64,000 nt of DNA, from assembly GCA_964627605.1 (NCBI GenBank), contig CAZVGZ010000001.1:47325-111324 (forward strand), in the 5' to 3' direction. Position 1 is the stretch's first letter, and every line of letters starts with the position of its first letter. Both the position numbers and the translations under genes were made by a program. The notes below the pieces were generated by a model. It had not been told where the DNA came from. It searched no databases and saw only the letters and a list, made by a program, of their open reading frames with translations. This document shows, piece after piece, positions 1,066 to 63,162 of the stretch. The DNA comes from an uncultured bacterium (GTDB lineage Bacteria; Latescibacterota; MWCZ01; CAZVGZ01).

Positions 1066-2169
1066 TTAGCCGCCGTATTTTTGACCGAGTTCACGGACCA
1101 GGTCCACGAAGGCGCGGTGGTCGTCAAATGAGGTGTCAGGGGGGGTGGCGTGGTCGATGCCTGGGACATAGCCGCCTGATTCGAGCAGTGCCGGGACTTT
1201 GCGCATAACCTCTTTTTTCATGGCATCACCGCCTTCTGCGACGGCGCGTTTGTCTACGCCGCCTAAGAGCGCGAGTTTGTTGCCAAACCGCTTGCGGGCG
1301 TTTTGCGGCTCCATTCCTGCGGCTATCTCGAACGGGCAGATAGCGTCCACACCCGACCCGACGAACATATCGAGCAGGCTGTCGGCGTTGCCGTCAGTGT
1401 CGAGCCAGATGACAGGTATTCCGCACGACTTGATGTGATCGTTTAGCGGCTCGTAGTAGGGCATCATGAATCTTTTTACGAAGTCAGGGGAGATCAACGG
1501 TCCGGTCTTGTGGGCCATATCCTCCCAGAGCAAAATGAAGTCCAAACCCTCGAAGTTGTCAGTGACTCGCGTAATCAGCCGCGTATAAAAGTCCAGCCAC
1601 CAACGCATTATCTCGTGGATGAGGTCGGGGTCGTCGTAGTAGACGTAGGCCAGACGCTCCTCGCCAAAGCAGTTGCGCGGTGTTCCGTAGGCACCGCACA
1701 CAGTCATCCCCAACGGGTAGTCGCGGTCGTAGTAATCCTCGTGCATCTCCGCCCAATCGGGATACCTGGTCGATACATCAGGATCAAGCTGGTTTTTCCG
1801 CATTGTTTCGAAGTCGGCAGGTGTTTCGATGGGGAACTTGAGCCACTGCGGCATGGACCGCTCAGGATGCGTGGCGCTCTGTCGTCGGACTATCCCGTAG
1901 CGGTCCTGATATACAACGTACTTGTCGTCACGTTCGAGCTCTTTATGCTCAAAGGTAGGGTCCAGAGGCAGCATCGTAAAGCCTGAATTGACAGGCAGAT
2001 AGGCCCATTTCTCCATCTCAAAGTAGTCGTGCGCCAAAACGTCCTCTGACAGACCCTCTTTGCGCCATCTGGTTATGGTCTCGCCCCAGAAACCAAGCGT
2101 TTCCCACCTCAGTGGCCGATCGACGCGCTCAAAGCGCATCTGCCTCAAAAACCTCTCCCGCGTATCCAT
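1066..2169 (-). CDS. Uroporphyrinogen decarboxylase (UroD)/MtaA-CmuA family methyltransferase-like protein, paralog 1
   Basis: 367 aa. The N-terminus MDTRERFLRQMRFERVDRPLRWETLGFW parallels the other three paralogs in the window (MSMTDRERFNACMHFESVDHVPDEEFGYW, MTSRERFLRTLSYRDVDRPPLFDD, MTSRQRLTLAMQGKPTDRVPLHVWG). Length and layout fit the URO-D-like TIM-barrel methylcobamide methyltransferase family. Confidence 0.7.
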   Translation of the reverse strand: MDTRERFLRQMRFERVDRPLRWETLGFWGETITRWRKEGLSEDVLAHDYFEMEKWAYLPVNSGFTMLPLDPTFEHKELERDDKYVVYQDRYGIVRRQSATHPERSMPQWLKFPIETPADFETMRKNQLDPDVSTRYPDWAEMHEDYYDRDYPLGMTVCGAYGTPRNCFGEERLAYVYYDDPDLIHEIMRWWLDFYTRLITRVTDNFEGLDFILLWEDMAHKTGPLISPDFVKRFMMPYYEPLNDHIKSCGIPVIWLDTDGNADSLLDMFVGSGVDAICPFEIAAGMEPQNARKRFGNKLALLGGVDKRAVAEGGDAMKKEVMRKVPALLESGGYVPGIDHATPPDTSFDDHRAFVDLVRELGQKYGG

Positions 2170-2295
2170 ACCCTTCGGGCCCTTCTGGACACTTCGTGCC
2201 GTTTTTTTTCAGTGAATCCGAGAGTTTGGCTGGGGTAGCTCCCCTGCGGACAACAGACCCTTCGGGTCACTCTATTCATCGAAAATGTGAGTCTG

Positions 2296-5121
2296 CTAGG
2301 GCAGCGCTCCAACCGACAACAGCGCTTTTGCTGCGGTTTCATTGAGCGCTAACTCTGGTCGACAATCATCTGATTGAGCGTGTCTGAGCAACTGCGAAAG
2401 CATATATCTCGCCTCTGGCCACTTCTGTTCGAGATTTAGTGCGCAGATGATGAGCGCTCCCTGTCCGACGCGCCGCTCAACAAGATAGCCCAGCGGATGG
2501 CAGATGAGATATGAGTGCATGACGCGGATCACCGGGTCGCCATCGTTAAGCCCCAAAGGCGTCAGGTCCAGCGGTGGCGAGTCAGTTATCATCCTGAAAA
2601 ACTGAAGGTCGGTGTAGCCCTCATGGGGCATGTCGCCAAGCATTGGGTGGTCGGCGATGATAGTGCCGTCGTGGCCGTCTTCGTTGGGCGGGTAGTTCGC
2701 TGGTGGTGTAAAAAAATAGTGGCCCTCTTTCATGCCAAACAGCGGACGATATGGACGCACCAACCCCTCTGACGCCACCAGAACGGCGCGGCCACCATCG
2801 TTGAGGTATTCGAGCAGTTGAGCATCGACGCGCTCAGTGAGCAGCACGTTGCCAGGCTGCGCTTTGGACACACCCGCTTGTTCAATTCCGTCTACCGACT
2901 TCAGCCAGGTGTGTTCGGGAGTGCCATAGATACCTGTGTTGGATGGCAGTTGGATTTCGTGTGGAAAAACCCACAGGTCCCACCGGTTTGTGACGACCCG
3001 GTCGCCGTCGGTAATGCAGGCGATTAACCGCGCTGGCGTTGGTGTCATCACTTGCGGTGCAGTGAATTCCACCTGACCTGCAAGGTACGTTCGGTACGGC
3101 TGGTGTGAGGCTTTTACAGTACCAGTAGAGACCACCTCTTTTCCGACGGATAGCTCCCACCCAATAGCACCAAACGACAGCGGCGGGTGCGAGAAATCTG
3201 ACACATGGAGGTCGCAGCTGACCAAGTCGCCTGGTTCGACCACACGGTCATCGAACCCCAGACTGCACATTATCACCGCGTCGCCGTTAGTCTCAAGCCA
3301 AGATGCGGCGTCGGCGATCTTTCGCTCGTAAAACTCGTCGATCACGCCTTGGGGAGATGGGTTCCCATCCATGGCGTTGAAATGGCATATGCCAGCCAGA
3401 TTCTCATAATCCCTGCGACACGCCTCCATCTTGGCTTTGGACTCCAAAAGTTGCAGATGTTGGCTGTTTTTGGCCCCCTGGGCCAGCGTGTGGCTGATGC
3501 CCTGTTTGGCTGCGGCTTTGATGGCGATCTCGGCTGCGTAGGGCCTCATAGCGCCGGAATATCTCTCTATAAGCGCAACATCTGGGAAAGAGCTCCACCA
3601 CTTATACTCATGTTGGATTAACGGCAGCGCGGTATCGCCGTCGCGGGAGGCTTGGTCGTTTACGAAATCTTGGGGCAGATCCTCGTTTAAGCCGCCGTCA
3701 GTCCAGATAACCAGCGCCGTTGGTTTGATTTTCTTTGTGTCGTTGTAGCACTTCCATGCCGAACGCGGAAAATCGGTATCGGCGCCGTATTCATTACTCA
3801 GGCAATAGAGGTTGGCCGATGGGTGATTTACATCGCGTAGGACGACGTTGTTCCACTGTGTTGTGAGAGCGTCGCGGAATCTGGGTGTTGGCTGCGGCCA
3901 CTGGTATACGTGGTCAGGTGTGTTGCCGCCCCACGCTCCTATCGCTCCCATCTCACTCTGAATCAGCAGACCCACCTCGTCAGCGACGTCGTAGTACTCT
4001 GGGGTCTGCGCGTACGACTGTAGCCTGACATAGTTGTAGCCGTAGTCACGAAGCGTTTTCAGCCTTTTACGAAGCCGATCACGGTCGGTGTCTGGGCTGC
4101 CGGTCTCAGGGCAGGGGATAAACTCTCCGGTGCCCCTCATGTAGTACGGCTCGTCGTTGATGAGAAAATGCTTGGCGTCGGTGGACAGGCTCACGAAGCC
4201 GATCCGCTCTGAGACCGCATCCAGAATCCGCCCGTCCTGCACAATCTCTGCATCAACGCGGTAGAGGTTGGGCGAATCGGGGCTCCATGGCTGTGGCGAC
4301 GGTATCGTGATGCGACACTCGGCCAAATTGCCAACGACAGGGGCCTTCACGCTCTGCTCCTGCCTTCCGTTTACCGGCGTTACTGTCGCTCGCAGAGTCA
4401 GATCGGAGATGGTCTTTGGAGAAAGATCGAACTGGGCGGATACATCCACCGCCTGTCCATTCAGGTCAGGACGACAGCGAAGCTGTTCAATCCGTGCCGA
4501 GCCAGCGGAAACGATCTCAACACCGCGATACAGACCCGACCAGTTGCCCTGCCAACTGTAGGCCATCCCAAAAATCCGATCCGCCTCGTGTACCCTCACT
4601 ACAATGTCATTCTGGGCTTTCAAGTTGACTACGTCGGTGATCTCGAACCCGAATGGCACAAACGGCTGTCCGTGGTTGCCTAACTCCACACCGTTCAGCC
4701 AGACTTGAGCAGATGGATGCGCTCCGCCGAACATCATCCACACCCGCTCTGACTCCCACGCGTCTGGCACCTCGAAACTTGAGGCGTACCACCCCGTGCC
4801 TTTGTAAGTCGCGCGAAAAGTCCTGGCCATCAGTCGGAAATCCCACACCATCTCACTCTCGTCGCTTCCGAACCCCTGGCCCTGCCAACATCCCGGCACC
4901 TCTATCGTGTCTTGAAAAATGTCCGACTGCCCAAACCACCCCTCACCGACACCAACGTCTTCTGGATCCAGTCGAAAGCACCACCTCGGGTCCAAACTCC
5001 GTCGCCTCTCGGCTGCATGTGTCAGCACCGGGTTCACTCGCACCGGGGCCAGGACGTTTTCTGCCGCTTCACCCATCTGTCTACCGCCATTTTCCATTGG
5101 GGATTCGCATATCCGCGCCAT
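2296..5121 (-). CDS. Glycoside hydrolase family 2 protein (beta-galactosidase/beta-mannosidase/beta-glucuronidase-like)
   Basis: 941 aa with GH2 architecture: N-terminal sugar-binding beta-sandwich (WYASSFEVPDAWESERVWMMFGGAHPSAQVWLNGVELG), then a TIM-barrel region with the acid/base motif NEYG (YCLSNEYGAD). The start codon is uncertain; M at ENGGRQ or MGEAAENV are alternatives. Confidence 0.8.
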   Translation of the reverse strand: MARICESPMENGGRQMGEAAENVLAPVRVNPVLTHAAERRRSLDPRWCFRLDPEDVGVGEGWFGQSDIFQDTIEVPGCWQGQGFGSDESEMVWDFRLMARTFRATYKGTGWYASSFEVPDAWESERVWMMFGGAHPSAQVWLNGVELGNHGQPFVPFGFEITDVVNLKAQNDIVVRVHEADRIFGMAYSWQGNWSGLYRGVEIVSAGSARIEQLRCRPDLNGQAVDVSAQFDLSPKTISDLTLRATVTPVNGRQEQSVKAPVVGNLAECRITIPSPQPWSPDSPNLYRVDAEIVQDGRILDAVSERIGFVSLSTDAKHFLINDEPYYMRGTGEFIPCPETGSPDTDRDRLRKRLKTLRDYGYNYVRLQSYAQTPEYYDVADEVGLLIQSEMGAIGAWGGNTPDHVYQWPQPTPRFRDALTTQWNNVVLRDVNHPSANLYCLSNEYGADTDFPRSAWKCYNDTKKIKPTALVIWTDGGLNEDLPQDFVNDQASRDGDTALPLIQHEYKWWSSFPDVALIERYSGAMRPYAAEIAIKAAAKQGISHTLAQGAKNSQHLQLLESKAKMEACRRDYENLAGICHFNAMDGNPSPQGVIDEFYERKIADAASWLETNGDAVIMCSLGFDDRVVEPGDLVSCDLHVSDFSHPPLSFGAIGWELSVGKEVVSTGTVKASHQPYRTYLAGQVEFTAPQVMTPTPARLIACITDGDRVVTNRWDLWVFPHEIQLPSNTGIYGTPEHTWLKSVDGIEQAGVSKAQPGNVLLTERVDAQLLEYLNDGGRAVLVASEGLVRPYRPLFGMKEGHYFFTPPANYPPNEDGHDGTIIADHPMLGDMPHEGYTDLQFFRMITDSPPLDLTPLGLNDGDPVIRVMHSYLICHPLGYLVERRVGQGALIICALNLEQKWPEARYMLSQLLRHAQSDDCRPELALNETAAKALLSVGALP

Positions 5122-5273: not shown

Positions 5274-6074
5274 GTGTGTCGAATCCAGGGTAGCCAACCC
5301 CTGCGCATCGCTATCCTAAATGAAAGAGTTGAGCCGGTGAAAACACCACTGAAAGTCGAGATTTCGCCCAGCCATCCGCTCCTTATCCTGATGGTGGACC
5401 GAGGTCCGCTAGGAGGCGAAGACGAGGGTGCCAAGATGGTCCGGCTGTACGAGGAGTTGGACGATGACATCAGGCCGTATATCACATTACAGATCAAGGC
5501 GGTACGGTCGAGTGACTTCCAGCGGGACGAGATTCTTCTCTCCTACGCCCAAAAAACCAACCTTCCTATCACTCTCCAGATTCAAGGAGATAACGGCGAC
5601 CGGCAGGATACCATGCCGATTGAGACGGTTCGCCGTTTTATTGATGAGTACCCGTGCATTGTCGGCCTTTAGATCGTCGAGGCGAGCCAACGCACGTTCG
5701 CCGATCAACCTGCTGGTCCTGAATACACAATGGGACGTAATGCTCGATATGCCAGAGATGTCATAAAGCTCGCAGGCGAATACGGTCTGTTTATGAGTTG
5801 GCAACTCATGCGGGACAACTACGCCGCCATCGGTTGTTCTGGAGACAACGAAGCGCTGTTTGACACCATCATCGAATACAGCGACTACGTGATCCCGATG
5901 CACGAGATGAACGTCACGACAATCACGCTGGATCAGAGCCCAGGCGGGTATCAGGACTTCGACCAGGGGGCGGCGAAAAAAATATGTCATCGACCCCCAA
6001 TAATCACGTTGGGCGTCGATTCTTTTTTCCGGGGTGCAATGTGTTGGTGGTGGTCTATGCGGCTGGATGGATAA
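5274..6074 (+). pseudogene. Hypothetical protein whose reading frame is interrupted by a single in-frame TAG at 5670-5672 (called as ORFs 5274-5672 and 5730-6074 in the same frame)
   Basis: Both ORFs are in frame 0 (5274 mod 3 = 5730 mod 3 = 0). Reading runs ...FIDEYPCIVGL TAG IVEASQRTFADQPAGPEYTMGRNARYARDVIKLAGEYGLF... The 57 nt between the TAG and the second ATG contain no further stop. There is no convincing SD before the 5730 ATG. I do not recognise the family; the gene is divergent from the GH2 gene. Confidence 0.4.
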
Positions 6075-7554
6075 CGGAACGCAAGGCGGGGTAGATCAGT
6101 CTGTATTTCCCAAACTGCACGTCGTAGAAGCGCGCGCGCTCAGCATCAGGGTCGATCGGATCGCTGTGTACGACCCCACATGACGCCGCCTCTTCGATTG
6201 ACGACCACACCCCCACCCCAACCCCAGCGATGAGCGCGGCCCCGAGCCCAGCCTGCTCTGCAACGTTGGTGGTGACGACTTGACACCCAAGAATGTCAGC
6301 TTGCAGTTGACGCCATAACGGTGAGCGGGCACCTCCTCCCGAGGCAACAACCTGATTCACCTCCGCTCCTAACCCCCGCATAATCTCAAGCCCCTCACGA
6401 AGCCCGTATGTCACACCCTCCATGATCGCCCGCGTCATGTGTGCCCTACTGTGACGCAGCGTCAGCCCCACAAAACCACCACGGGCATGGGGGTCCATGT
6501 GCGGCGTTCGTTCACCAGCCAGGTAGGGGGCGAAAAACAGTCCCTCTGATCCTGCGGCGACAGCGCTAGCCTCGTCTGACAGATCGCTATATGATAGGTC
6601 GTGGCTGGCTTGAAGAACCTGCTCGCGAAACCATTTGAGCGATAGGCCTGCGCTGAGGGTGGCGGCCATCAGATACCACCGATCCGGCGCGGTATGGCAA
6701 AAGCTGTGCGTCCGCAGTTGAGAGTCAACCAAAGGCCAGTCGAGCGACAGGAAAATCTGCCCTCCGGTGCCGATGGTGGATTGAGCTGAACCGTGTTGGG
6801 TGACGCCGTTTCCCACCGCAGCTATAGGTTGGTCGGCACCACCGTACATGACCGGGATACCGCTTCGTAGGCCAACGGATTTTGCGGAGGCATCGGTTAG
6901 CTCACCTGCGATATCAGATGATTCGGCGACAGCTGGCAACCACGACTGAGGCAGATCCAGAGCCCCGAGCATATCCTTCGACCATCGCCGCCGTGCTACG
7001 TCGAACAGTAGCGTGCTCGAAGCATCTGACGCCTCGGTCCCGATCTCTCCTGTGAGTCGATATCTGACGTAGTCTTTGGGCAAAAGTACCGTGTAAATGC
7101 GGTCGGTTATTTCAGGTCTGTGTCGGACAAGCCACAGGAGTGTTGCAGCCTGAAAGCCTGTAGCGATGGGGTTGCTTGTCCAGCGAGCGAGGTTCTCCAG
7201 GCCTACGTTGTCACAGATATACTCAACCTCAGCGGCGCTTCGCTGGTCAGCCCAGATTGTGGCTGGAAGCAGCGGGTCGCCATTGGAATCGAGACAGACG
7301 GTGCCGTGCATCTGCCCTGAGAAACCTATACCTGCTATATCCTGGTCGGAGATGCCGCTCTTGGAGACGACCTTATTGATGGTATCACACGCTGCTTGCA
7401 CCCACGCATCCGGGTCCTGCTCAGCCCAGTCGTCCATCGGTGTGTCAATTCCGTAGCCGACATATGCGGTGTCCGTGACGACGCCGTCCTCGTCCACCAG
7501 CACGGTTTTTGTTCCCGATGTGCCCACATCAATGCCGAGGAGGTATCGGGGCAT
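6055..7554 (-). CDS. xylB: FGGY-family carbohydrate kinase (xylulokinase-like)
   Basis: 499 aa starting MPRYLLGIDVGTSGTKTVLVDEDG, the FGGY N-terminal phosphate-1 motif. Carries ...GFSGQMHGTV... and a C-terminal FGGY_C domain (VASGGGARSPLWRQLQADILGCQV). Confidence 0.8.
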   Translation of the reverse strand: MPRYLLGIDVGTSGTKTVLVDEDGVVTDTAYVGYGIDTPMDDWAEQDPDAWVQAACDTINKVVSKSGISDQDIAGIGFSGQMHGTVCLDSNGDPLLPATIWADQRSAAEVEYICDNVGLENLARWTSNPIATGFQAATLLWLVRHRPEITDRIYTVLLPKDYVRYRLTGEIGTEASDASSTLLFDVARRRWSKDMLGALDLPQSWLPAVAESSDIAGELTDASAKSVGLRSGIPVMYGGADQPIAAVGNGVTQHGSAQSTIGTGGQIFLSLDWPLVDSQLRTHSFCHTAPDRWYLMAATLSAGLSLKWFREQVLQASHDLSYSDLSDEASAVAAGSEGLFFAPYLAGERTPHMDPHARGGFVGLTLRHSRAHMTRAIMEGVTYGLREGLEIMRGLGAEVNQVVASGGGARSPLWRQLQADILGCQVVTTNVAEQAGLGAALIAGVGVGVWSSIEEAASCGVVHSDPIDPDAERARFYDVQFGKYRLIYPALRSVIHPAA

Positions 7555-7629: not shown

Positions 7630-8238
7630 CTATTCGGAGGCGTCTGCGCTCTGATGGGTCAGGGCTCCATAGATGTAGGCCGCCGTGCCGACAATTATAC
7701 TGACGGCTATCAGATAGACCGGGGCACAGACGACCGCCGCCGGCAGCCGATCAAATGACACCAACAACACTGCGGCCGCCCCAAAGAGGATAATTTTAAG
7801 AGCGACCAGGCTAAAGAAAATGGTCCACTTGTGCCCAAAGGTGATCCGGTTGCTATCTGTGAGACACTCCATTGGGCTCAAACCCTTGTCCACCAAGAGG
7901 TAACACGATTGGCTCCACGCCAGAGCTATTATCACTCCGGGAATCACTACGAAAATGAACCCCACGGGCACAGCGATCGACAGTATTGCGACCAGCAGAA
8001 AATAGTCGCCCATATACTGTCTGTAGCGGGCGTTGAATATCTCGGTGGGTGAAAACTGTTCGCCACGACTCATGCTTGCCACAAGTCCGCAAGTTACCGC
8101 TATGGTAGTGCCGACATTTAGGTATGGTATCCAGATTGTCGCAAGCCAGAGAACCATCGCGCCAAGCACTGATGGGAGGTTCTTGAACCCGATGCTTATG
8201 CCACCTGTGATGATTCCGCCGATGGTCAGTTGAGCCAT
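7630..8238 (-). CDS. Polytopic membrane protein of unknown function, translationally coupled downstream of the symporter gene
   Basis: 202 aa with about 5-6 hydrophobic helices. There is a 12-nt gap after the stop of the 8251-9786 symporter. Confidence 0.55.
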   Translation of the reverse strand: MAQLTIGGIITGGISIGFKNLPSVLGAMVLWLATIWIPYLNVGTTIAVTCGLVASMSRGEQFSPTEIFNARYRQYMGDYFLLVAILSIAVPVGFIFVVIPGVIIALAWSQSCYLLVDKGLSPMECLTDSNRITFGHKWTIFFSLVALKIILFGAAAVLLVSFDRLPAAVVCAPVYLIAVSIIVGTAAYIYGALTHQSADASE

Positions 8239-8250: not shown

Positions 8251-9786
8251 TTATTCGCGCGTCCACCAGGTCATGCGGTGAAGCTGCTCTTCGCTAGGCG
8301 GTGGGAAAAAGTAGCTTGATAGGTATCCCACGCCAAAAAGAAGCACGTTTGCCACAACGCCGATAAAGAAGCGCTGGATCGGCAGCGCCATCCATTCAGG
8401 CAACGCCCCCAAAGCGCTCAGACCCGCCCAGAGCGTAAAGGTGAATGTGAGCGCAACTCCGATTAACGCGCCCTGCCAGTTGGTCCTCGTAGATACGAAG
8501 CCCAACAGGAAAAACCCGCCTAGCCCGCCGGTGAGTACCGCCCCGACGAACATCCCCAGATCAAGAATGGTGGTTTCGCCAACCAGAGAGAGTAGATAGG
8601 CGGTCACCACCATTAGCACACCCAAACCGCCTGTGATATAACGAGCGGCTTTGAGGTAGTATTCGTCGCTGCGGTCTAAGGAGATATACCGTCTAAAAAA
8701 GTCTTCAGTGATGACAGTAGCAGAACCATTCATGCTGGAGTCTATGCTGGACATCGCCGCAGCCAGAACAGCCGAAATGACCACGCCGCCAAGGAACGGC
8801 GGCATCCGTGTCAGAATGAAATGCGGATAGACCGCGTCAGCTTTAAGACCTGATACCACCGAATCTGGATGCACCTGGAAATAGACCCACAGGACGGTGC
8901 CCACGAGCATGAACATCCCCCAGATGGGGATGCAACCAAAGCCCACTGTCAGCACCGATGTGAGAGCGCCTTTGTCGTCTTTGGCGGCGGCGTAACGTTG
9001 TATTTTCGTCTGATCGGTGGAGAACTCCTGTACATTGCCCACCAGACCCATGAGGGCAAATGTCCAGAACGTCAGTTTCACCAGGCTGAAATCAAAATCG
9101 ACACTCAGGTTGAATTTGCCAGCGTCCCATGCCTGCCCCACGACCGCCGACACGCCTCCTTCTACTCCCCAAAACACTATCACTAACGTGATGACTCCGC
9201 CGAACATCAGCACAATCGTCTGAAGCACATCGGTCCAGATGACCGCCTCCAAACCCCCTACAGCGGTGTAGAGGACGATTAGCGCTCCCACCACGATCAT
9301 CACGGTCGTCATCCCCCATCCGGTCATCCCGGTGACAGCGATGGAGATCAGGAATAGGATGATACCCATCCGGTATATTGAGCCGAGTATAAACAGCGCG
9401 CTGGCGTAAGATCGCCCCCACGCTCCGAAGCGGCGGTTGAAATACTCATATGCGCTGCGAAATAGCGTCTTACGGTAGAACACGACGAAATAGCGCAGCG
9501 CGATCATCGCTGTCACCGGCAGCATCAATCCTGGAACGAGGCGACTCCAGTCACCAGCGTATGCCGATCCTGGGTATGCCAAAAAGGTGATTGAGCTGAT
9601 GGCGGTGCCCAGCATGGAGAGTCCCACCGCCCAACCCGGGATCGCCCGCCCACCGACGAAAAAGCCCTCTGTACCCTCGGCTTTGATCCGTTTGGAGCTC
9701 CACATAGCCAAAGCCACCATTGAGGCGGCGTAGAGGAAGACTGCGATTCCATCCCAGAACCTTAGGGTCGTGACGGCCTCATTCAT
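8251..9786 (-). CDS. Sodium:solute symporter (SSS family) transporter
   Basis: 511 aa with about 13 TM helices. Has the SSS family signature region (FFVGGRAIPGWAVGLSMLGTAISSITFLAYPGSAY). Confidence 0.85.
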   Translation of the reverse strand: MNEAVTTLRFWDGIAVFLYAASMVALAMWSSKRIKAEGTEGFFVGGRAIPGWAVGLSMLGTAISSITFLAYPGSAYAGDWSRLVPGLMLPVTAMIALRYFVVFYRKTLFRSAYEYFNRRFGAWGRSYASALFILGSIYRMGIILFLISIAVTGMTGWGMTTVMIVVGALIVLYTAVGGLEAVIWTDVLQTIVLMFGGVITLVIVFWGVEGGVSAVVGQAWDAGKFNLSVDFDFSLVKLTFWTFALMGLVGNVQEFSTDQTKIQRYAAAKDDKGALTSVLTVGFGCIPIWGMFMLVGTVLWVYFQVHPDSVVSGLKADAVYPHFILTRMPPFLGGVVISAVLAAAMSSIDSSMNGSATVITEDFFRRYISLDRSDEYYLKAARYITGGLGVLMVVTAYLLSLVGETTILDLGMFVGAVLTGGLGGFFLLGFVSTRTNWQGALIGVALTFTFTLWAGLSALGALPEWMALPIQRFFIGVVANVLLFGVGYLSSYFFPPPSEEQLHRMTWWTRE

Positions 9787-38641: not shown

Positions 38642-38728
38642 TAACAATGTTCGTGCCCAGGCCGGATTGTGGAGGTTTCCCGCTGGCTGGAAGGGCGTAA
38701 GCGCGCGCACGGCAAGGAGGTAACTCGC

Positions 38729-39367
38729 ATGGCCGATTATCAGGCGATTGCGGATGAAATCATCGTAGGCAACCGAACAAAAGTAGTTGAACTGGTAGAC
38801 GCCGCACTCGACGAAGGGGCGCCGGCCAAAGATATCTTGGATCATGGCATGATCACGGGAATGTCCGTGGTCGGCGAGAAGTTCAAGAACTGCGAGTTTT
38901 ATGTCCCCGAAGTGTTGGTGGCCGCCCGTGCGATGCACGCAGCGCTCGACGTACTTCGACCGCTACTCGCCGACTCCGATGTCCAGCCCGAAGGCACAGT
39001 GGCCATCGCCACCGTCAGAGGCGATCTCCATGACATTGGCAAAAACCTTGTGGCGATGATGCTTGAAGGCGCTGGCTTTGAGGTCGTTGACCTTGGTGTC
39101 GATGTCTCGCCTGAAGGTTTTGTCAATGCGGTCAAGGAGCAGGGCATTAACGCGATCTGCCTCTCGGCGCTTTTGACAACGACTATGCCCGCTATGCAGG
39201 ATACAGTGACTGCACTCGAAGCCGCTGGAATACGCGACACTGTCGCCGTGGTTATCGGCGGTGCTCCAGTGACGCAGAAATATGCCGACCAGATCGGTGC
39301 CGATGGCTACGCCGCCGATGCCGCCAGCGCAGTGGACGTAGTCAGAGAGGTCATGGTTAAGGCCTAA
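38729..39367 (+). CDS. Cobalamin-binding corrinoid protein of a methyltransferase system (MtaC/MtbC/MttC-like)
   Basis: ATG at 38729 with an aaggagg SD. N-terminal helical B12-binding-2 domain, then a Rossmann B12-binding domain with the DxHxxG motif (GDLHDIGKN) and …LSALLTTTMP…GGAP…. Confidence 0.85.
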   Translation: MADYQAIADEIIVGNRTKVVELVDAALDEGAPAKDILDHGMITGMSVVGEKFKNCEFYVPEVLVAARAMHAALDVLRPLLADSDVQPEGTVAIATVRGDLHDIGKNLVAMMLEGAGFEVVDLGVDVSPEGFVNAVKEQGINAICLSALLTTTMPAMQDTVTALEAAGIRDTVAVVIGGAPVTQKYADQIGADGYAADAASAVDVVREVMVKA

Positions 39368-39483
39368 CTCCACTTGAGCCAAATGGTCGCTGATTCCATC
39401 GATGAATGGGGTGCTCTCCAAAAAGGGGTGGCATCCCATTTCTCTTTGCTGTCGGTGGGTCCGCAGCGAAACCTGAGAGGGAG

Positions 39484-40539: not shown

Positions 40540-40743
40540 GTGACAGATTGATCGCTTACATAAGATCGCTTGTGTGCCAGTTGGAACCCCATCAACCGCA
40601 GAACACTAGTCGAAGGGCTCGATGGGTTAGGCGGCCACCTCTACCTCGGAATTACGAGAGGTCGCCGCTGCATAGTCGGCTGCAGGCTGGACATGAGGCA
40701 CATCAACCACTAGCTTTTGGTCGATCGATTTATAAAGAAAGCC

Positions 40744-51510: not shown

Positions 51511-52050
51511 GTGACAACAGACCTGATCTATCGCGACGACTCTGAACGTGGACAGCTCGACGTGATGCTGCCTGAAAGAGGCGATGCACCGTTCCCGATG
51601 GTTGGTGCTATCCATGGCGGCGGATGGATGGGTGGTGAGAAGGAGGCGATGCACCTCTACGGCCATCGCCTCACCGATATGAGGATAGCATGTGTGCTGC
51701 CCAACTACCGCCTGACAGGTACACACAACCATCCAGCGCAGCAGGACGATATTTTTTCGGTCCTCGATTGGGTGGCGGCCAACTGGGACAGATGCGGCTC
51801 CCCGATCTCCCATATCCATCCCCAAGCGCCGCCCTGTCTTATGACCCACGGCGCGGCGGACTCTCTGGTGCCAGCAAACCAGTCCACGATCTTAGTCGAA
51901 GCCCTGACCGCAATCGGTGTGGAGGCTGAGGCGATCTTGGTGCCAGGCGTAGACCACGCTGCAACAATGCCAGATATCTCCCCAGAAGAGCCGTTGGGCG
52001 GAATCGCTTCGTTCCAAACATTTTGGCGTCGCCACCTCCTGTCCGACTGA
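51511..52050 (+). pseudogene. Alpha/beta-hydrolase (HGGG-type esterase) with an apparent internal deletion of the nucleophile region
   Basis: 179 aa. The oxyanion HGGGW motif is present (AIHGGGWMGG), as is the C-terminal …HGAADSLVP… region. No GxSxG nucleophile elbow, and the protein is about 100 aa shorter than HGGG-type esterases. Confidence 0.4.
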
Positions 52051-52059
52051 CCTAGAACG

Positions 52060-53406
52060 ATGCCGCCGAACATCTTGTGGTTGATGACCGACGAACAGCG
52101 TACCGACTCGATGGGCTGTTATGGCAGCCCGTGGGCTCAGACCCCGTGTCTTGACCGGTTGGCAGGCCAGGGCGCGCTGTTCAAGAACGCTGTGACGCAA
52201 GCTCCCGTCTGTGGTCCGGCCAGGGCTGCCATTCTGACCGGCGAGTATCCCTCAAAGAGTGATGTTTGGTACAACAGCCCAGCGACAACGTTTCAGAGTC
52301 ACCTCACCGACGTATTTCGCAGCGCGGGATACCAGACCGCGTCATTCGGCAAACAGCACTATGTCGCGACCAATCAGGCGTTCGACGACGAAGGGCACTT
52401 CGTGCTCAGCGATCAGGTCTCCTACTTCAAGTACAACGACCAGTTCAATCCCGACGATTTCGGTGCGGTGACATATCCGCCTGAGCCGTACGGATGGATA
52501 TTCGGCGGTCGATTTCCAGGCGGTGCAGATCAGACGTCCGAAGCGAAATCGGTAGCTGCCGCAAAAAGCTGGCTCGAAGACAGGTCAGGCGAAGAGCCGT
52601 TCCTCCTCCGTGTGTCGTTCAACGGCCCCCACACCCCTGCAGTACCGCCAGAGCCGTTCGACACAATCATCAACGGGGATCATATCGTTTTTCCGCCTGA
52701 AGTCGAATCGATCACGCAAGGCGAGTCAGACTGGATAGCCTCATCACTCAGGCCGATGGCGGACTTAAATCGGCTCACCCAGACCCAGATCAGCGCGATG
52801 CGGCGCTACTACTACGGCGAGGTCGCCTACCTCGATTCGCTGATAGAAGAGCTTACCGACTGGATGGGCGTGTGCGGATTTTTGGACAACACAATAGTCA
52901 TGTTCGTATCGGACCACGGTGCTCACTTAGGCGATCATTTGCTCGTTCAGAAGCAGACTTTCTATGAGCCTTCGGTCACGGTACCGTGTTTCATCACCCA
53001 TACTCAGACAGTCAACGGCGGGCAGGTCGTTGAGACGCCGGTGGAGACGCGGTGGCTTCTGCCTACCCTGTTGGAGTTGTCGGGTCTATCAGCGCCGGAC
53101 CATCTGTCCAATTGCAGCATGTCCATACCACTTGCCGGCGGTGTGGAACCACCCAGCGTACCGGTATTCAGCGAGTTCACATTGGGATCGTTTGGTATCC
53201 GCCACGATGACAGGTTGGTCATGGTCAGGGACGGCAACTGGAAGCTTTCCATGTGTTTGGACCCCACGCCGCATGATTCGGCACTCTACAACCTGGGAAC
53301 CGATCCTTTTGAGTTGACGAATCTGGCCGGACTAGCGGAATCCCACCACATCGAATCCAGGCTTTCAGGCTTGATAGAGAACCATATCAGCGAGTCCTCG
53401 ACATAA
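52060..53406 (+). CDS. Formylglycine-dependent sulfatase (arylsulfatase family)
   Basis: 448 aa. N-terminal NILWLMTDEQRTD, and the sulfatase signature CGPAR within APVCGPARAAILTGEYP (C-x-P-x-R). Confidence 0.85.
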   Translation: MPPNILWLMTDEQRTDSMGCYGSPWAQTPCLDRLAGQGALFKNAVTQAPVCGPARAAILTGEYPSKSDVWYNSPATTFQSHLTDVFRSAGYQTASFGKQHYVATNQAFDDEGHFVLSDQVSYFKYNDQFNPDDFGAVTYPPEPYGWIFGGRFPGGADQTSEAKSVAAAKSWLEDRSGEEPFLLRVSFNGPHTPAVPPEPFDTIINGDHIVFPPEVESITQGESDWIASSLRPMADLNRLTQTQISAMRRYYYGEVAYLDSLIEELTDWMGVCGFLDNTIVMFVSDHGAHLGDHLLVQKQTFYEPSVTVPCFITHTQTVNGGQVVETPVETRWLLPTLLELSGLSAPDHLSNCSMSIPLAGGVEPPSVPVFSEFTLGSFGIRHDDRLVMVRDGNWKLSMCLDPTPHDSALYNLGTDPFELTNLAGLAESHHIESRLSGLIENHISESST

Positions 53407-55793: not shown

Positions 55794-56567
55794 TCACTCC
55801 GGCGTCACGTACGCCGCTGTGATCCCCCCATCGGCTGTAAATGTCGCACCGGTGACATAGCTGGATTCGTCGGATGCCAGGAACAGCGCCGCTTTAGCCA
55901 TCTCCGAGGCTTCACCGAACCGACCCATGGGCACATGGACCAGCCGCCGCTGCTTCTTCTCTTCGGTGTCGAGGAACGCCATCAGAAGCTCTGTCTTGAG
56001 CGGGCCTGGGCAGAGGGCGTTGACGCGGATGTTTTCGCGGGCATGTATCACCGCAAGTTCGCGGCTCATGGCAAGCACGCCGCCCTTGCTGGTGGTATAG
56101 GCCAACTGTGGTGTCGCCGCTCCTACAATAGCAACGAACGACGCGGTGTTGACGATAGAACCGCCTCCTGCCCGGCGAATAGCTGGTATCCCATATTTAC
56201 ACCCTAAATAGACACCCTTGAGGTTGACGCTCATAGTCAGATCCCAAACGTCTTCCTCAGTCGCTTGCGAGTCGCCATCATCGCCGTGCATGATGCCAGC
56301 GTTGTTTAACAGCACCGACAGCGATCCGAACCTTTTTTCGGCGACATCCACCATCTTCTCGCATTCGTCGGCCTTAGAGACATCCGCATGCGCGAAAACA
56401 GCACTACCACCCTGGCTCTCAACGAGCTCGACCGTCTCCTCTCCTGCGTCATCGTTCACATCTACCACCACCACCCGCGCTCCCTCTCTCGAAAAAAGCA
56501 GCGCTGACTCCCGCCCGATACCGCTGCCTGCGCCGGTAATGAGAGCCACTCTCTCCTCTAACCGCAT
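55794..56567 (-). CDS. Short-chain dehydrogenase/reductase (SDR)
   Basis: 257 aa. TGAGSGIGR cofactor motif, NNAG, and catalytic YTTSK (YxxxK). Confidence 0.85.
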   Translation of the reverse strand: MRLEERVALITGAGSGIGRESALLFSREGARVVVVDVNDDAGEETVELVESQGGSAVFAHADVSKADECEKMVDVAEKRFGSLSVLLNNAGIMHGDDGDSQATEEDVWDLTMSVNLKGVYLGCKYGIPAIRRAGGGSIVNTASFVAIVGAATPQLAYTTSKGGVLAMSRELAVIHARENIRVNALCPGPLKTELLMAFLDTEEKKQRRLVHVPMGRFGEASEMAKAALFLASDESSYVTGATFTADGGITAAYVTPE

Positions 56568-57307
56568 TACGATGCCTCCTGCGAAATGCCCCTGAATTCA
56601 ACCGCTGCCCTTGCGAGTCCATCGAACAGCCTTTGCTGGGCCGGGTCGTCAGCCGCCGTCAACTCTGGATGCCACTGAACCGCCAGAAACCAGCTTTGAC
56701 CAGGCATCTCAAACCCCTCAATCATCCCATCCGCCGCACGGGCCACCACCTCAAGCCCTGGTGCAGTGTTCTTCAAAGCCTGATGGTGCCACGATTGAGA
56801 TGTCGTTTCCGTGCATCCCATGACTCGCGCCAGCATCGAACCAGGCTCAATCGACATCGGATGAGGAGTCGGCTCTCTCGGCGGCAATCGATGCGCAACC
56901 TGCGTGCCAAATTTTTCGGGCAGATGCTCGAAAAGGTCTCCCCCCAGCGCGACATTCACTACCTGCGCCCCTCGGCAGATCGCCAAAATCGGCATGTCTA
57001 TTTCGAGCGCTTTCAAAGCTAGCTTGAATTCCAGATCATCCCGTTCAGTGTCCACCATGTAGGTTCTTTCATGCCCAACACCACCGAACCGTTGTGGCTC
57101 AATATCCCCGCCACCTACCAGCACCAATCCGTCGATGGGCCCCAGCATCTCGTCGGAATACTCTCCGCACGACGGCAGAACCACCGGCAGCGCGCCTGAT
57201 CTTCGCACCGAATCGACATACTCCGATGGAAGCGTCAAGACATTTTTTCTATCACGACCGTACGTGGTTATTCCGATCACTGGCGATCTTTTTCCCATTC
57301 TATTCAT
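56567..57307 (-). CDS. Class I glutamine amidotransferase-like / peptidase C26 (gamma-glutamyl-GABA hydrolase PuuD-like)
   Basis: 246 aa. The IGIT N-terminus, the catalytic Cys motif AICRGAQ, and the WHPE His region. Confidence 0.75.
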   Translation of the reverse strand: MNRMGKRSPVIGITTYGRDRKNVLTLPSEYVDSVRRSGALPVVLPSCGEYSDEMLGPIDGLVLVGGGDIEPQRFGGVGHERTYMVDTERDDLEFKLALKALEIDMPILAICRGAQVVNVALGGDLFEHLPEKFGTQVAHRLPPREPTPHPMSIEPGSMLARVMGCTETTSQSWHHQALKNTAPGLEVVARAADGMIEGFEMPGQSWFLAVQWHPELTAADDPAQQRLFDGLARAAVEFRGISQEAS

Positions 57308-57619: not shown

Positions 57620-58057
57620 ATGGAGACACTAAGAGCTCAGGCCTACTTTCACGCGGCGCATCGGCAGATCGGATACCCAGGCAAATGCCGACACGTCCAC
57701 GGCCACACCTGGCGCGGCGTGATTGTCGTCAGCGCAGAGAGGCTCCCACGCAACGATCTGGACATGGCGGTAGATTTCGGCGACCTCAAAGACATCCTGC
57801 GGTCGCTCGACCATAAGATGATGGTCTCTCAGACCGATTCAGTGTTTCTGGATGAATCGCTGTTCGACCAGGATGGCGTGGTACTGATTCCAGGCAACGG
57901 CCCGTCGGTGGAAAATATCTCCAACTACGTCTATGACAGAGTCGCCGACGTGATCAGACGGCAATACCCCGATCTTGGCATATCCTACCACATCTTTGTG
58001 GAGATTCAGGAGACGGACAACAACTTCATGGTAGTTGAAGGCGACGCGGTTATCTAG
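57620..58057 (+). CDS. 6-pyruvoyl-tetrahydropterin synthase / QueD-family protein, second paralog
   Basis: 145 aa with the CxxxHGH motif (CRHVHGHTW). Its stop lies 8 nt before the MBL-hydrolase start. Confidence 0.75.
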   Translation: METLRAQAYFHAAHRQIGYPGKCRHVHGHTWRGVIVVSAERLPRNDLDMAVDFGDLKDILRSLDHKMMVSQTDSVFLDESLFDQDGVVLIPGNGPSVENISNYVYDRVADVIRRQYPDLGISYHIFVEIQETDNNFMVVEGDAVI

Positions 58058-58064
58058 GTCAAAA

Positions 58065-59156
58065 ATGCGCAAACGCACCTTGTTTTGGCCCATCCCAGCG
58101 CTTTCGGTCGTCTGGTTGATCACAGCAATGGCAGGCGACGAAACCCCAAAAACAGCCGTGAGGCGACCGGCCCACCATACGGATGGTGGGTTCAGAATCC
58201 CCTGGGACGCATCCACTGACAAAAGCTTCTCCCAACTGATGCGCTGGCGATGGGACGTATGGACAAAAGGCAGACCCGACACCCCACCCGCAGCAAGCTT
58301 CCCCCTCGCCAAGATCAACCACGCCCTCATCGACACAAACCCTACGCAGTTTACAGCGACGTGGATCGGTCACGCCACGCTTTTGGTGCAGATGGACGGC
58401 CTAAACATCCTTACCGATCCGATCTTTTCGGACAGAGCGTCGCCTATATCGTGGTTTGGGCCCAAACGGGTATCCGATCTGCCGGTCGATTTAGACAGCC
58501 TTCCACCGATTGATGTGGTGATAATCTCTCACGACCACTACGATCATCTTGACGCGCCGACTATCGACCGTCTAGGTGACAGACCCCACTATCTGGTTCC
58601 GCTGGGCTTCAAAGAGTGGCTAGCTGATCGCGGGATCATCAGGAAAGTGACCGAACTCGACTGGTGGGAAGGCGTGGAGATTAGAGGCGTGCGGTTCGTC
58701 GCGACGCCGTCGCAGCACTGGTGCGCGCGTTCCCACATTGACCGCAACGAGCGGCTGTGAGCGTCGTGGGCGGCCATCGGCCCAACAGCAAAGCTCTTTT
58801 TCGGCGGTGATACTGGCTACTTTGGTGGGTTTGAAGAGATTGGCCGTAGGTTCGGTCCGTTTGATCTAGTGGCGCTGCCGATCGGTGACTACGAGCCGCG
58901 CTGGTTCATGAAAAACTCCCACATGAACCCCAATGAGGCGGTTAGGGCGTTCCAAACCCTGGGGGGCAGAACGCTAGTCGGTATACATTGGGGAACGTTT
59001 CGTCTCACCGATGAGGATATGCTTGAACCGCCGGTTCGCACTCGTGCCGCGTGGGATTCGGTCGGCCTGCCTCCTGAGCGGCTGTGGGTTCTGAAGCATG
59101 GTGAGTCGAGGGTAGTGCCCACGACGGGTGAAAGTCCAGACGTGACTCTGCAATGA
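58065..59156 (+). pseudogene. NAPE-PLD-like MBL-fold metallo-hydrolase with an in-frame TGA at 58758-58760 replacing a conserved Trp (called as ORFs 58035-58760 and 58869-59156 in the same frame)
   Basis: Signal-peptide-like N-terminus (MRKRTLFWPIPALSVVWLITAMAG). Has the HxHxDH motif (ISHDHYDHLD). Reading runs …[72 protein letters not shown]… Eukaryotic NAPE-PLD has …[24 protein letters not shown]… at this position, so the TGA sits exactly at the conserved W. Confidence 0.6.
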
Positions 59157-61604: not shown

Positions 61605-62069
61605 CTAGGGAATGATTGTTGTTGCGACACCGAAGGGCACCCGCTTTAATTCGCTGCCCTGGCACACCCAAACTACCGCGTATGTTCCGTAGCTCTCAAA
61701 TGACATCGAGTGGACGTCGATCGTCAGTGCGATGGCACTATCCATCCTACCCGCTGGTGGATCGGCGACATTTATGACCCCTGCGAACGGTGAAGCAATT
61801 TTGCCACCGTGGTCATCGATGACCTGGAGCGAGATATCTTTGGATCCGGTCTCGACACTGGAGAATCGCAGTCGCATGACAGCAAAAAAACGGGCGGTGG
61901 TGTAGGGAAGCTCAGGCGAATAGATCGTGTCAAAACCGATCCCCAACGCCTGGAGTTTTCCCGAACTGTCAGCGTGGTCACACAAAAACGCAAAGTCGAT
62001 TTCCATATTAACTCTCCAGAGGGACCTTCGCCCCGTATTCGATTCCGGCTCAATAGTGCCCGTACTCAA
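61605..62069 (-). CDS. Hypothetical small protein
   Basis: 154-aa ORF; the likely start is the internal MEIDFAFL… M. Overlaps the start region of the 62050-63162 gene by 20 nt. No recognised motif. Confidence 0.35.
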   Translation of the reverse strand: MSTGTIEPESNTGRRSLWRVNMEIDFAFLCDHADSSGKLQALGIGFDTIYSPELPYTTARFFAVMRLRFSSVETGSKDISLQVIDDHGGKIASPFAGVINVADPPAGRMDSAIALTIDVHSMSFESYGTYAVVWVCQGSELKRVPFGVATTIIP

Positions 62070-63162
62070 GTGCCGTGTCGATCATCGCCATGTAGTTGTC
62101 CACTACCAAGGGCGAGAGTTTCGGGTTGTAGGGAGAGGCCGTGGGGCAGAGGATAAACCTTCCGCCTCCACCAGCGTCATCTATCGCGGCTTTTACCATT
62201 CCCCGTATTACGTCCGGGGTCTCTGCGAAAAGATCGCCTACCTGAATATTGCCGTGGAGGCATACTTGGCCGCCAACCCTCTGTTTTGCTTCAGCCAGTG
62301 GTGTATCGCCTAGTGGTGGCGCTTCGATGGGATGCAGGCAGTCCGCACCAAGCTCAACCATGTCCTCCAAAATCTCCTGCATCGGACCGTGGCAGTGGAC
62401 ATGCACCAAGCTACCTGCGTCGTGAACCACTTTGGCGATCTTTGTCATCGGCTCAGTGACAAACTCACGGAAATCTTTTGGGCGTTGGAGTGGCGGTCCG
62501 GCGTACTCCGCGCCTAAAAACGCGAAAACGCCTTTGACGCCGCCAGATATGAGGTACTCAACAAATTCCAGAATCCGCTCCTCAAACAGCCGCACGAGGC
62601 CTATCACTGCATCTCGCCGCTCGACACTCCAGATCGCCATCGTCTCAGAGCCCAACAGCGAATGGACGTTCATCACAGGGTCGTCCAGGGAGATAAACAC
62701 CACCCCGCTCTCACCTATCTCCTCATCATACGCCGTAAAACCGCCAAGGTCCGGCTTTGGCGGGACATACGGCACCGACAGAAAGGCTTCTAAGTCGTCA
62801 GCGGTTTTGACTGGAAACTCCTGCTGAAGGCTTGGATAGTCGCTATGGCTTATCTGATCCACCAGTGTCAACTCGCCTTTGGGAGTGCTCCAGGTTGTGG
62901 TGACCAGGTCCCAATCGTCTATAGGGCTCACGCTTTGTCGGGCCTCCACTTCGTCGCTGTCGGTGAGAAACCAGCCGCTAGGCACCCCCCACCCGCAGCA
63001 GTGGTCGCCATGCTCCCTCACAGCGTCTATTAGCGGTTCCCAGCTCTCGTGACGGTCGTTAACCCACGATTCGTCATAGGGCCGCACGCCCCAAACATGG
63101 AGCGGCACTCGGTCGGTCGGTTTTCCTTGCATGGCAAGGGTGAGCCGTTGGCGCGATGTCAT
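62050..63162 (-). CDS. UroD/MtaA-CmuA family methyltransferase-like protein, paralog 4
   Basis: 370 aa starting MTSRQRLTLAMQGKPTDRVPLHVWG; same family layout as the other three paralogs. Confidence 0.7.
   Translation of the reverse strand: MTSRQRLTLAMQGKPTDRVPLHVWGVRPYDESWVNDRHESWEPLIDAVREHGDHCCGWGVPSGWFLTDSDEVEARQSVSPIDDWDLVTTTWSTPKGELTLVDQISHSDYPSLQQEFPVKTADDLEAFLSVPYVPPKPDLGGFTAYDEEIGESGVVFISLDDPVMNVHSLLGSETMAIWSVERRDAVIGLVRLFEERILEFVEYLISGGVKGVFAFLGAEYAGPPLQRPKDFREFVTEPMTKIAKVVHDAGSLVHVHCHGPMQEILEDMVELGADCLHPIEAPPLGDTPLAEAKQRVGGQVCLHGNIQVGDLFAETPDVIRGMVKAAIDDAGGGGRFILCPTASPYNPKLSPLVVDNYMAMIDTALEYGHY

Follow-up and report, generated by a model that had tools for sequence, protein, structure and literature searches.

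Why should one stretch of a bacterial genome carry four genes of the uroporphyrinogen decarboxylase (UroD) superfamily, and do their products all serve the one corrinoid protein that is encoded among them? We addressed this question in an uncultured bacterium of the Latescibacterota, using 64,000 nucleotides of contig CAZVGZ010000001.1 (GenBank assembly GCA_964627605.1, positions 47,325 to 111,324), hereafter called the window. The window holds four URO-D genes per approximately 55 genes, far above the one HemE per genome, and we labeled these open reading frames (ORFs) P1 to P4 according to their position. A preliminary description of the window had proposed that several substrate-specific methyltransferases of the MT I type (methyl donor:corrinoid-protein methyltransferases) feed one carrier here. 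We found that the four proteins belong to three clades and that the family of P2 is linked, across genomes, to corrinoid proteins and one-carbon (C1) genes. On balance, we regard P2, and by homology P1, as a methyl donor:corrinoid-protein methyltransferase of the MT I type, and P3 and P4 as separate proteins.

Three clades of UroD-like proteins

The four ORFs were found at exactly the coordinates given for them before, and all pass the Pfam URO-D model (PF01208, gathering score 23.9 bits) with 54.7, 46.6, 34.9, and 69.5 bits for P1 to P4, the match in P1–P3 being restricted to the C-terminal two-thirds or less. The proteins have the UroD-type (beta/alpha)8 fold, and their structural top matches were solely HemE and MtaA, then MetE. 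The proposed membership of the UroD superfamily, as opposed to a HemE identity, was thus borne out. Their divergence is as clear as had been claimed, pairwise identities being 18–35%, with P2, P3, and P4 sharing 35%, 25%, and 18% identity with P1, respectively. The N-terminal pattern ascribed to all four is present in a loose form only (MDTRERF, MSMTDRERF, MTSRERF, and MTSRQRL, each followed by (V/T)D(R/H)(P/V)P), and it marks the superfamily, because MtaA (4ay7) carries the same kind of N-terminus.

Homologue searches, cross-scores of family hidden Markov models (HMMs), and distinct invariant residues backed a division into three clades. By these data the four proteins are three distinct, uncharacterised UroD-superfamily clades and not one kind of enzyme. 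The P1/P2 clade carries the signature D-x-D-G…E…D-H at the top of the barrel, at positions equivalent to those through which MtaA binds zinc (H-x-C…E…C). In P1 these residues are D257-T-D259-G…E281…D339-H340. The D-x-D-G motif was kept in 134 out of 140 diverse representatives of the clade, in which E216-D217, E281, D339-H340, R135, R165, K307, and W35 (P1 numbering) were at least 90% conserved. Close P2 orthologues share W29, W36, W217-E218-D219, D259-C-D261-G, E283, and D340-H341 without exception. When aligned to MtaA through P4, D259 and D261 of P2 take the places of the His and Cys of H-x-C, E283 takes that of the Glu, and H338, D340, and H341 lie around the third Cys. The P2 search gave 2431 matches, the top ones, at 50–61% identity, coming from Armatimonadota, Latescibacterota, Chloroflexota, and Acidobacteriota, and at least 583 species genomes (one genome scanned per species) have a gene of this clade. 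P1 is more divergent, its closest relatives being merely 43–45% identical. At least 400 clusters (50% identity) match it at E<=1e-30, and it scores 402 bits against the P2-family HMM, for which P1 itself was one of the 121 sequences used.

P3 has 499 homologues at 35–47% identity, in a family of approximately 325 aa. It lacks the N-terminal beta-hairpin insert and has no ligand residues at the positions of the H-x-C metal site, where its family has R-T-Y-A-N and P3 itself R-S-W; the conserved residues of the family include the arginines R6, R18, R27, R88, R249, R257, R298, and R300. The P4 search gave 261 matches, with H256-x-H258-G…H277-x-x-E280 invariant in the family. H256-C-H258 of P4 aligns with the H-I-C of MtaA, and an invariant Ala342 stands at the third Cys.

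Compared with the H-x-C…C zinc site of MtaA, P1 and P2 thus have D-x-D…D-H, P4 has H-x-H and an alanine in place of the third Cys, and these ligands are missing from P3. The zinc-thiolate site, which had been singled out for checking, is absent from all four window proteins, and only the Glu that aligns with the fourth zinc ligand of MtaA is kept in each of them. The scores with the models of MtaA, CmuA, and MtbA (TIGR01463, PRK06252, and others) were likewise low. P4 scored best, with 51.8 bits (PRK06252), and P1–P3 reached 16–33 bits, against subfamily or equivalog cut-offs of 235–600 bits in NCBIfam. Membership of the MtaA/CmuA group was rejected, given these scores and the absent H-x-C…C. 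The preliminary description had also held that a lack of zinc ligands, together with conserved HemE substrate residues, would mean HemE or an inactive homologue. The zinc part of this rule is unsound because zinc-free UroD-type MT I enzymes exist, namely CdmB and the Moorella O-demethylase (PMC13222342).

Database names read "uroporphyrinogen decarboxylase family protein", and taken at face value they would make the four proteins genuine uroporphyrinogen decarboxylases (HemE) or decayed copies. There is indeed weak C-terminal similarity to HemE chains, and His341 of P2 aligns with His339 of HemE, a residue with an equivalent in P1 and P2 only. However, the hemE model TIGR01464 (equivalog cut-off 302.95 bits) gave 22.8, 21.5, and 27.0 bits for P1, P2, and P4, about one-tenth of the cut-off, and no match for P3. 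The alignment to HemE chains and human UROD (whose query sequence agrees with the PDB alignments) covers the C-terminal half only, from residue ~150–182 onward. The N-terminal half, with the substrate arginines and Asp86, could not be aligned. The substrate residues of HemE are Arg37 and Arg41 (the RQAGR motif), Asp86, and Tyr164 in the human numbering, and none of the four paralogues has an RQAGR-like motif after (V/T)D(R/H)xP. The proposed check of the HemE substrate residues therefore came out against HemE. The context holds no haem-pathway genes, and each family is conserved at 35–60% identity across phyla, which shows that these are not decayed HemE copies. A HemE identity is rejected, and we give it virtually no chance. 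The four genes should be counted neither as HemE nor as a set of four MT I enzymes resembling MtaA, and proteins of the P3 and P4 types should be handled as separate unknowns.

Linkage of P2 to corrinoid and one-carbon genes

P2 and P3 lie in a co-directional string on the plus strand, in the order FTHFS (formate-tetrahydrofolate ligase), P2, P3, PTPS, corrinoid protein, hydrolase, and B12-binding radical-SAM protein, with intergenic gaps of 9–177 nt (Table 1). The corrinoid gene follows P3 after 530 nt, in the same orientation, and is encoded together with P2 and P3 only. It is the single carrier of the window, as had been stated, the second B12 domain being found only in the radical-SAM protein. 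The DxHxxG motif of the carrier reads D119-L-H121-D-I-G, its best NCBIfam matches are of the MtgC/MtbC type (all under cut-off), and its true start likely lies ~60 nt downstream, a related cluster member having 212 aa.

To learn how general this arrangement is, we compared the neighborhoods of P2 relatives (80 species-level loci, 1.14 Mb, from species genomes) with those of P4 relatives (80 loci, 0.74 Mb, from a metagenome collection and shorter). At least one corrinoid or C1 component was present in 19 of the 80 P2 loci and in none of the 80 P4 loci (Fisher p = 1.1e-6; p = 1.4e-4 for the corrinoid protein alone). Of the P2 orthologues, 13 had a corrinoid gene nearby, in every case on their own strand and in 6 cases within 60 nt. 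Other components were RACo (7 loci), DUF1638 (7), a PF02574 homocysteine S-methyltransferase (SMT; 8), a MeTr-like PF00809 (Pterin_bind) protein (4), and FTHFS (4; L051, L057, L022, and L015, where L-numbers denote the individual loci or contigs used for comparison). Because of this linkage, P2, and by homology P1, is most likely a corrinoid-dependent methyltransferase.

Tight same-strand operons that join P2 to corrinoid protein (Corr), RACo, DUF1638, SMT, or MeTr genes recur in at least six phyla. The order is Corr–SMT–MeTr–P2–FTHFS in Abditibacteriales (L022), Corr–RACo–DUF1638–P2–UroD–SMT (L025) and UroD–Corr–DUF1638–RACo–MeTr–P2 (L046) in Latescibacterota, and SMT–Corr–RACo–DUF1638–P2–UroD in Armatimonadota (L090), while two further Latescibacterota loci (L051 and L057) have FTHFS–P2 as in the window. 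The best model locus available for the P2 system is a compact same-strand cluster in Armatimonadota bacterium SJ283 (L015; JADLDR010000072.1, 4085–16224). It encodes, in order, a UroD, a P4 orthologue (50% identical), a nitroreductase, a second UroD, DUF1638, a corrinoid protein, a P2 orthologue (60% identical), a Mur_ligase_C fragment (folylpolyglutamate-synthase-like), a MeTr-like protein, SMT, and FTHFS. A P2-orthologue cluster in Armatimonadota metagenome-assembled genomes (L003 4923–14269 and L004 1–9030) also contains an MtaB-like methanol methyltransferase, a UroD::corrinoid fusion (590 aa), a separate corrinoid protein, two to three more UroD paralogues, an aldo/keto reductase with Fe-S domains, and a NIR_SIR protein.

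URO-D expansions are common in these phyla, with four genes within 7 kb in L015 and five within 10 kb in L004. Such clusters bear on the idea that all four window proteins are substrate-specific MT I enzymes loading the single corrinoid protein, with a broad demethylating repertoire. In its favor, multi-UroD clusters around one corrinoid protein do exist (L015, L077, L003, and L004), L015 having four UroDs that include the orthologues of P4 and P2, and the Glu of the zinc site is common to the four proteins. P2 itself is in a string with the sole corrinoid protein and FTHFS, and its orthologues occur in corrinoid operons of several phyla, some of them with several UroD genes. This part of the earlier model stands. 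However, the three clades have different or absent ligand sets rather than those of one MT I set, and no paralogue reaches the cut-off of an MtaA, CmuA, or MtbA model. Corrinoid protein, RACo, DUF1638, SMT, and MeTr were absent from all 80 P4 loci, and a corrinoid gene from all four other contexts of P3-family genes, in addition to the missing ligands of P3. Furthermore, P1 and P4 are 35 and 23 kb away from the corrinoid gene, both on the opposite strand and in unrelated gene strings, P1 following a GH2 gene. We therefore consider it distinctly unlikely that all four load the one carrier. P4 is probably a stand-alone metalloenzyme with a histidine site, without a corrinoid link and with a different function. 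More speculatively, P3, a lid-less, ligand-less, arginine-rich relative, could act in this lineage as an accessory protein or as the partner for a second half-reaction.

The same operons suggest another role for the P2 clade, that of the methyl-tetrahydrofolate (or methyl-pterin):corrinoid module of a split methionine synthase, in place of the pterin-binding module. The SMT–Corr–RACo–DUF1638–P2 operons of L090 and L025 have no Pterin_bind gene in the fetched DNA, FTHFS adjoins P2 in the window and in four other loci, and a PTPS gene and a Mur_ligase_C fragment occur in the strings of the window and L015, respectively. But in L015, L022, L046, and L077 the string of P2 also includes a MeTr-like gene for pterin binding, and P2 would therefore be an additional module there. 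This role would also leave the sugar islands with a GalK-like kinase (see below) unexplained, as well as the fact that an operon often holds at least two different UroD paralogues. We judge it to be very unlikely. P2 is most likely attached to a split-MetH-like core, and by analogy its orthologues would occupy the place of an added methyl-donor module, like MtgB.

Proposed reaction and methyl donors

If P2 is an MT I enzyme, its methyl acceptor would be the Co(I) state of the corrinoid protein, whose gene is the third after P2. From this carrier the methyl group would move on into the C1 pool of tetrahydrofolate, FTHFS being the first gene of the string, while in P2 relatives it would be passed to homocysteine to give methionine instead. 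P2 would plug into the core as MtgB does into the split methionine synthase core MtgC/D/E. We infer that the acidic/His site of P2 holds a metal or polarizes the leaving group; with a carboxylate/His set in place of His/Cys, the Lewis acid might be a harder one, or an oxygen leaving group might be activated directly by hydrogen bonding. Our data thus show the fold, the signatures of the clades, the order of the genes, and their linkage across genomes, and from these we infer catalysis, the direction of methyl flow, the metal, and the substrate.

Several known systems resemble this arrangement in part. The coenzyme M (CoM) methyltransferases MtaA, MtbA, and MtsA have the same N-terminal motif and a conserved Glu after strand 7, and P2 shares with them the adjacency to a corrinoid gene, although the window offers no CoM context. 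A working model for methyl transfer from substrate to corrinoid protein by P2 is provided by the bacterial and archaeal demethylases OdmB, VdmB, MtvB, MtoB, and CdmB (PDB 9rui). Zinc is not obligatory among such UroD-type three-component MT I enzymes (PMC13222342), and their corrinoid protein, activase, and tetrahydrofolate methyltransferase likewise occur near P2 relatives. The P2 neighborhoods differ in having sugar genes and parts of split MetH, and whereas these demethylases are found in acetogens, the hosts of the P2 clade are polysaccharide-degrading Latescibacterota, Armatimonadota, and Chloroflexota. In the PDB search, CdmB gave no sequence match to P1–P3 or to the P2-family profile, and matched P4 at E=0.54 only.

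The split MetH and MtgBCDE systems of Phaeobacter and Ruegeria share their core genes with the strings of P2 relatives (corrinoid protein, PF02574, the PF00809 MeTr-like protein, RACo, and DUF1638). Genetic evidence connects a RamA-like activase and DUF1638 with the reactivation of B12 in the split methionine synthase (PMC5764234), and in Ruegeria the corrinoid core MtgC/D/E is common to methionine synthase and the catabolic MT I enzyme MtgB (PMC12478193). MtgB belongs to the MttB family (PF06253), whereas the methyl-donor module of the P2 type would have the UroD fold. Type 1 mlp clusters (Mlp1–3 with a corrinoid protein and RACE; Kountz & Balskus preprint) also have several UroD paralogues round one corrinoid protein, without a dedicated tetrahydrofolate methyltransferase and with a substrate that is not known (PMC10418091). 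The Mlps share ~30% identity with MtaA/MtbA and fall on the branch of the CoM methyltransferases, whereas the window proteins are much more distant by model scores, have no RACE in the window, and stand in a context of carbohydrate and C1 genes instead of sulfur or selenium. Multiple UroD-like paralogues beside a corrinoid protein are, as O-demethylases and mlp clusters illustrate, a known theme (PMC10418091). The recurrent attachment of the P2 clade to split-MetH/FTHFS modules in polysaccharide degraders looks undescribed, because searches of NCBIfam, the PDB, and the literature found no curated family, solved structure, or paper for these clades.

The surroundings of P1 and P2 relatives are rich in sugar genes. 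P1 is the last gene of a string for sugar uptake and catabolism (GH2, FGGY kinase, DUF975, and SSF symporter), which has the same order on an independent contig (L011). The rest of the window is dominated by genes of sugar and uronate catabolism, including a second FGGY kinase, two AP_endonuc_2 proteins, GFO_IDH_MocA, an SMP-30 lactonase, a DHDPS-like aldolase, a sulfatase, and an aldehyde dehydrogenase. Among the P2 loci we found GFO_IDH_MocA in 20–22, DUF2961 in 9, BNR_2 in 8, and a GalK-like kinase in 7, as well as recurring sulfatases. In Chloroflexota, the order UroD–FGGY–AP_endonuc_2–P2–Corr–GalK-like–GFO lies inside a sugar island, and P2–Corr–GalK-like within such an island was seen in three lineages of this phylum. 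These neighborhoods suggest methylated carbohydrates as methyl donors. Of the substrate classes named in the preliminary description (aromatics, sugars, amines, and halides), the context suggests sugars only. As sugar genes surround P1 and many P2 orthologues, our preferred guess for the donor is an O-methylated sugar released in polysaccharide breakdown.

A more specific version, which we hold as no more than a tentative possibility, would make the P1/P2 clade an O-demethylase that works through a corrinoid protein on methylated sugars (alkyl methyl ethers, with O-methyl-galactose and 4-O-methyl-glucuronate as examples). The methyl group would be stripped inside the cell and passed via the split-MetH-type corrinoid core either to tetrahydrofolate, from which FTHFS would yield formate and ATP, or to homocysteine, yielding methionine, and the freed sugar would go to the neighboring kinases. 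If so, the clade would do without oxygen what the P450 route does for 6-O-methyl-galactose, and it would connect the degradation of polysaccharides with C1 metabolism and the demand for B12 in Latescibacterota, Armatimonadota, Chloroflexota, and others, a connection that has gone unrecognised. If, more generally, proteins of the P2 clade are corrinoid-dependent methyltransferases with a new ligand set and a new class of methyl donor, genome-based models of the metabolism of abundant uncultured heterotrophs would need a methyl (C1) branch and an added B12 requirement, and it would become testable what happens under anoxia to the methyl ethers of polysaccharides from algae and plants, which to our knowledge has not been worked out. 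Searches of the literature on demethylation of sugars and polysaccharides by corrinoid or UroD enzymes, and on corrinoid methyltransferases of Latescibacteria and Armatimonadota, found nothing on the P1/P2 clade. Should the P2 clade be methyltransferases of this kind, a very widespread unnamed family currently annotated only as "uroporphyrinogen decarboxylase family" would gain a function.

The same sugar neighborhoods could be read differently, with most or all of the four proteins as TIM-barrel enzymes of sugars or sugar acids, metal-dependent in P1, P2, and P4 and metal-free in P3 (isomerases, epimerases, decarboxylases, or lyases, for example), and with the corrinoid linkage of P2 as a side story. 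Carboxylate/His sites at the barrel top are typical of the TIM barrels of sugar isomerases and epimerases, the neighbors are mostly GFO_IDH_MocA, AP_endonuc_2, kinases, glycoside hydrolases, and sulfatases, and most loci lack corrinoid genes. HemE, the founding member of the fold, is a cofactor-free decarboxylase, and a P2 orthologue is present in an aerobe. But the P2 operons with Corr, RACo, DUF1638, SMT, and MeTr in at least six phyla are hard to explain in this way, and we found no sugar-converting enzyme with a UroD fold, including among the structural top matches. We consider this reading rather unlikely.

Several observations nevertheless weigh against a corrinoid-dependent methyltransferase. 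In 61 of the 80 P2 loci (many of them short contigs) the fetched DNA has no corrinoid or C1 gene. The 64-kb window has no RACo/RamA, DUF1638, MeTr, or homocysteine methyltransferase, setting it apart from the split MetH and MtgBCDE systems, and neither an MT II enzyme nor an activase was found in the ~10 kb beyond the P1 end, the contig read on the other side ending ~1.2 kb past P4. The sole nearby pterin-binding gene is an ordinary DHPS. A PTPS gene was near none of the 80 P2 orthologues, the adjacency of P3 and PTPS is not conserved, no true P3 orthologue was found beside P2 elsewhere, so that the adjacency of P2 and P3 is not conserved either, and the radical-SAM gene beside P2 orthologues is not conserved. 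The inclusion of P1 in the clade has 35% identity and the common signature as its sole basis. Candidatus Fervidibacter sacchari PD1 (L034), a cultured hyperthermophile, is aerobic, and its P2 orthologue (54% identical; NZ_CP130454.1, ~1,489,326–1,490,435), on which the paper describing the species is silent, adjoins a GFO_IDH_MocA gene and lacks a corrinoid gene in the surrounding 10 kb. An acidic pocket lined with Trp would fit cationic methyl donors as well as sugars. Finally, members of the P1/P2, P3, and P4 clades are known from sequence alone, and sequence does not decide between an MT I and an MT II role for P2.

Other features of the window

Table 1 Coordinates of the four UroD-superfamily genes and of neighboring genes in the window.
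Feature	Position	Strand	Remarks
P1	1066-2169	(-)	367 aa; UroD-fold, divergent member of the P1/P2 clade
GH2 glycoside hydrolase	2296-5121	(-)	Pfam; directly upstream of P1, co-directional, 126-nt gap
FGGY kinase	6055-7554		Pfam; further upstream of P1
DUF975	7630-8238		Pfam; further upstream of P1
SSF symporter	8251-9786		Pfam; further upstream of P1
FTHFS (formate-tetrahydrofolate ligase)	34082-35794	(+)	PF01268, 811 bits; first gene of the string
P2	35931-37073	(+)	380 aa; UroD-fold, from a large conserved clade; candidate methyltransferase (MT I type) dependent on a corrinoid protein
P3	37165-38139	(+)	324 aa; short UroD-fold, separate conserved clade
PTPS/QueD-like T-fold protein	38149-38562	(+)	PF01242, 126 bits; 9 nt past P3
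Corrinoid methyl-carrier protein	38669-39367	(+)	PF02607 + PF02310 (B12-binding_2 + B12-binding)
Alpha/beta hydrolase (Abhydrolase_7)	39406-40539	(+)	Weakly glucuronoyl-esterase-like
B12-binding radical-SAM protein	40717-42492	(+)	PF02310 + PF04055, with CxxxCxxC at 266; closes the string
DUF6941 gene	61605-62006	(-)	PF22091; downstream of P4
P4	62050-63162	(-)	370 aa; UroD-fold, third clade; stand-alone gene

The PTPS-like protein of the P2 string is below the NCBIfam QueD cut-off, and the radical-SAM protein is BchE/HpnJ-like, far under the cut-offs. The P2–P3 tandem, the P3–PTPS pair, and the radical-SAM gene were rejected as conserved parts of the system, being absent beside P2 orthologues elsewhere. 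The hydrolase has the nucleophile elbow G-L-S-G-G-G at 246 and a partial GCE_fung match of 42.7 bits. Its assignment to the CE15 glucuronoyl esterases, which would point to 4-O-methyl-glucuronate, is unsupported, as the match is weak and partial and the CE15 motif, G-C-S-R-x-G around the nucleophile Ser, is absent. The DHPS gene lies 4 kb outside the window (L011 13007–13882) and was rejected as the missing MT II enzyme by its match to TIGR01496 (296 bits). A second PTPS/QueD-like paralogue at 57620–58057 is flanked by genes for a Peptidase_C26 protein (gamma-glutamyl-hydrolase-like; 56567–57307) and an MBL-fold protein (58035–58760). The two PTPS paralogues and DHPS hint at folate/pterin supply genes scattered around the C1 cluster. 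Rfam and tRNA scans of the window gave no match, and no cobalamin riboswitch.

P4 is located between a sulfatase fragment and the DUF6941 and DUF255 genes. The small ORF reported earlier to overlap P4 does so only through an artefactual TTG start. The ATG of DUF6941 is at 62006, 43 nt past the P4 stop; it corresponds to codon 22 of the long ORF, the first Met, and to the gene start called in L012. DUF6941 was rejected as a partner of P4, since the genes do not overlap and DUF6941 adjoins P4-family genes in this organism only. Near P4, a 131-aa ORF at 63447–63842 (-) matches the N-terminal 65 residues of the sulfatase domain alone, and a 179-aa BD-FAE/Abhydrolase_3 fragment at 51511–52050 (+) lies directly ahead of a full sulfatase (52060–53406). 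Both may be gene remnants or mis-assembled starts. A large DUF6785 protein adjoins a P4 orthologue (L008/L009 4825–6933) and, in another lineage, a P3 orthologue (L175 9148–11070 / L176 3671–5593), and may be a common partner or transporter for orphan UroD-like proteins.

The CACAC-N3-GTGTG palindromes that had been said to flank P1 are both on its 3' side (920–932 and 1053–1065), two perfect copies being observed against 0.14 expected, with no match to an Rfam family. A third CACACTTCG copy lies at 953–961, also just 3' of P1. The outer two palindromes can pair with each other over ~130 nt (z = -2.4 for the minimum free energy), and the element could be a terminator or REP-like. At 44154–46862, a fused GlcD-like/GlcE-like FAD-linked oxidase of 902 aa is encoded, and FAD-linked oxidases of the GlcD/GlcE type were found near P2 orthologues in 5 of the 80 loci. 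In a 1500-aa ORF at 23179–27681 (-), otherwise unannotated, the only matches are an FtsX-like permease domain at the C-terminus and, weakly, an M28 peptidase. A KamA-family radical-SAM aminomutase (21893–23083, +), unrelated to the UroD finding, adjoins the gene for a 1007-aa TPR protein, its best match being glutamate 2,3-aminomutase with 473 bits against a cut-off of 650 bits.

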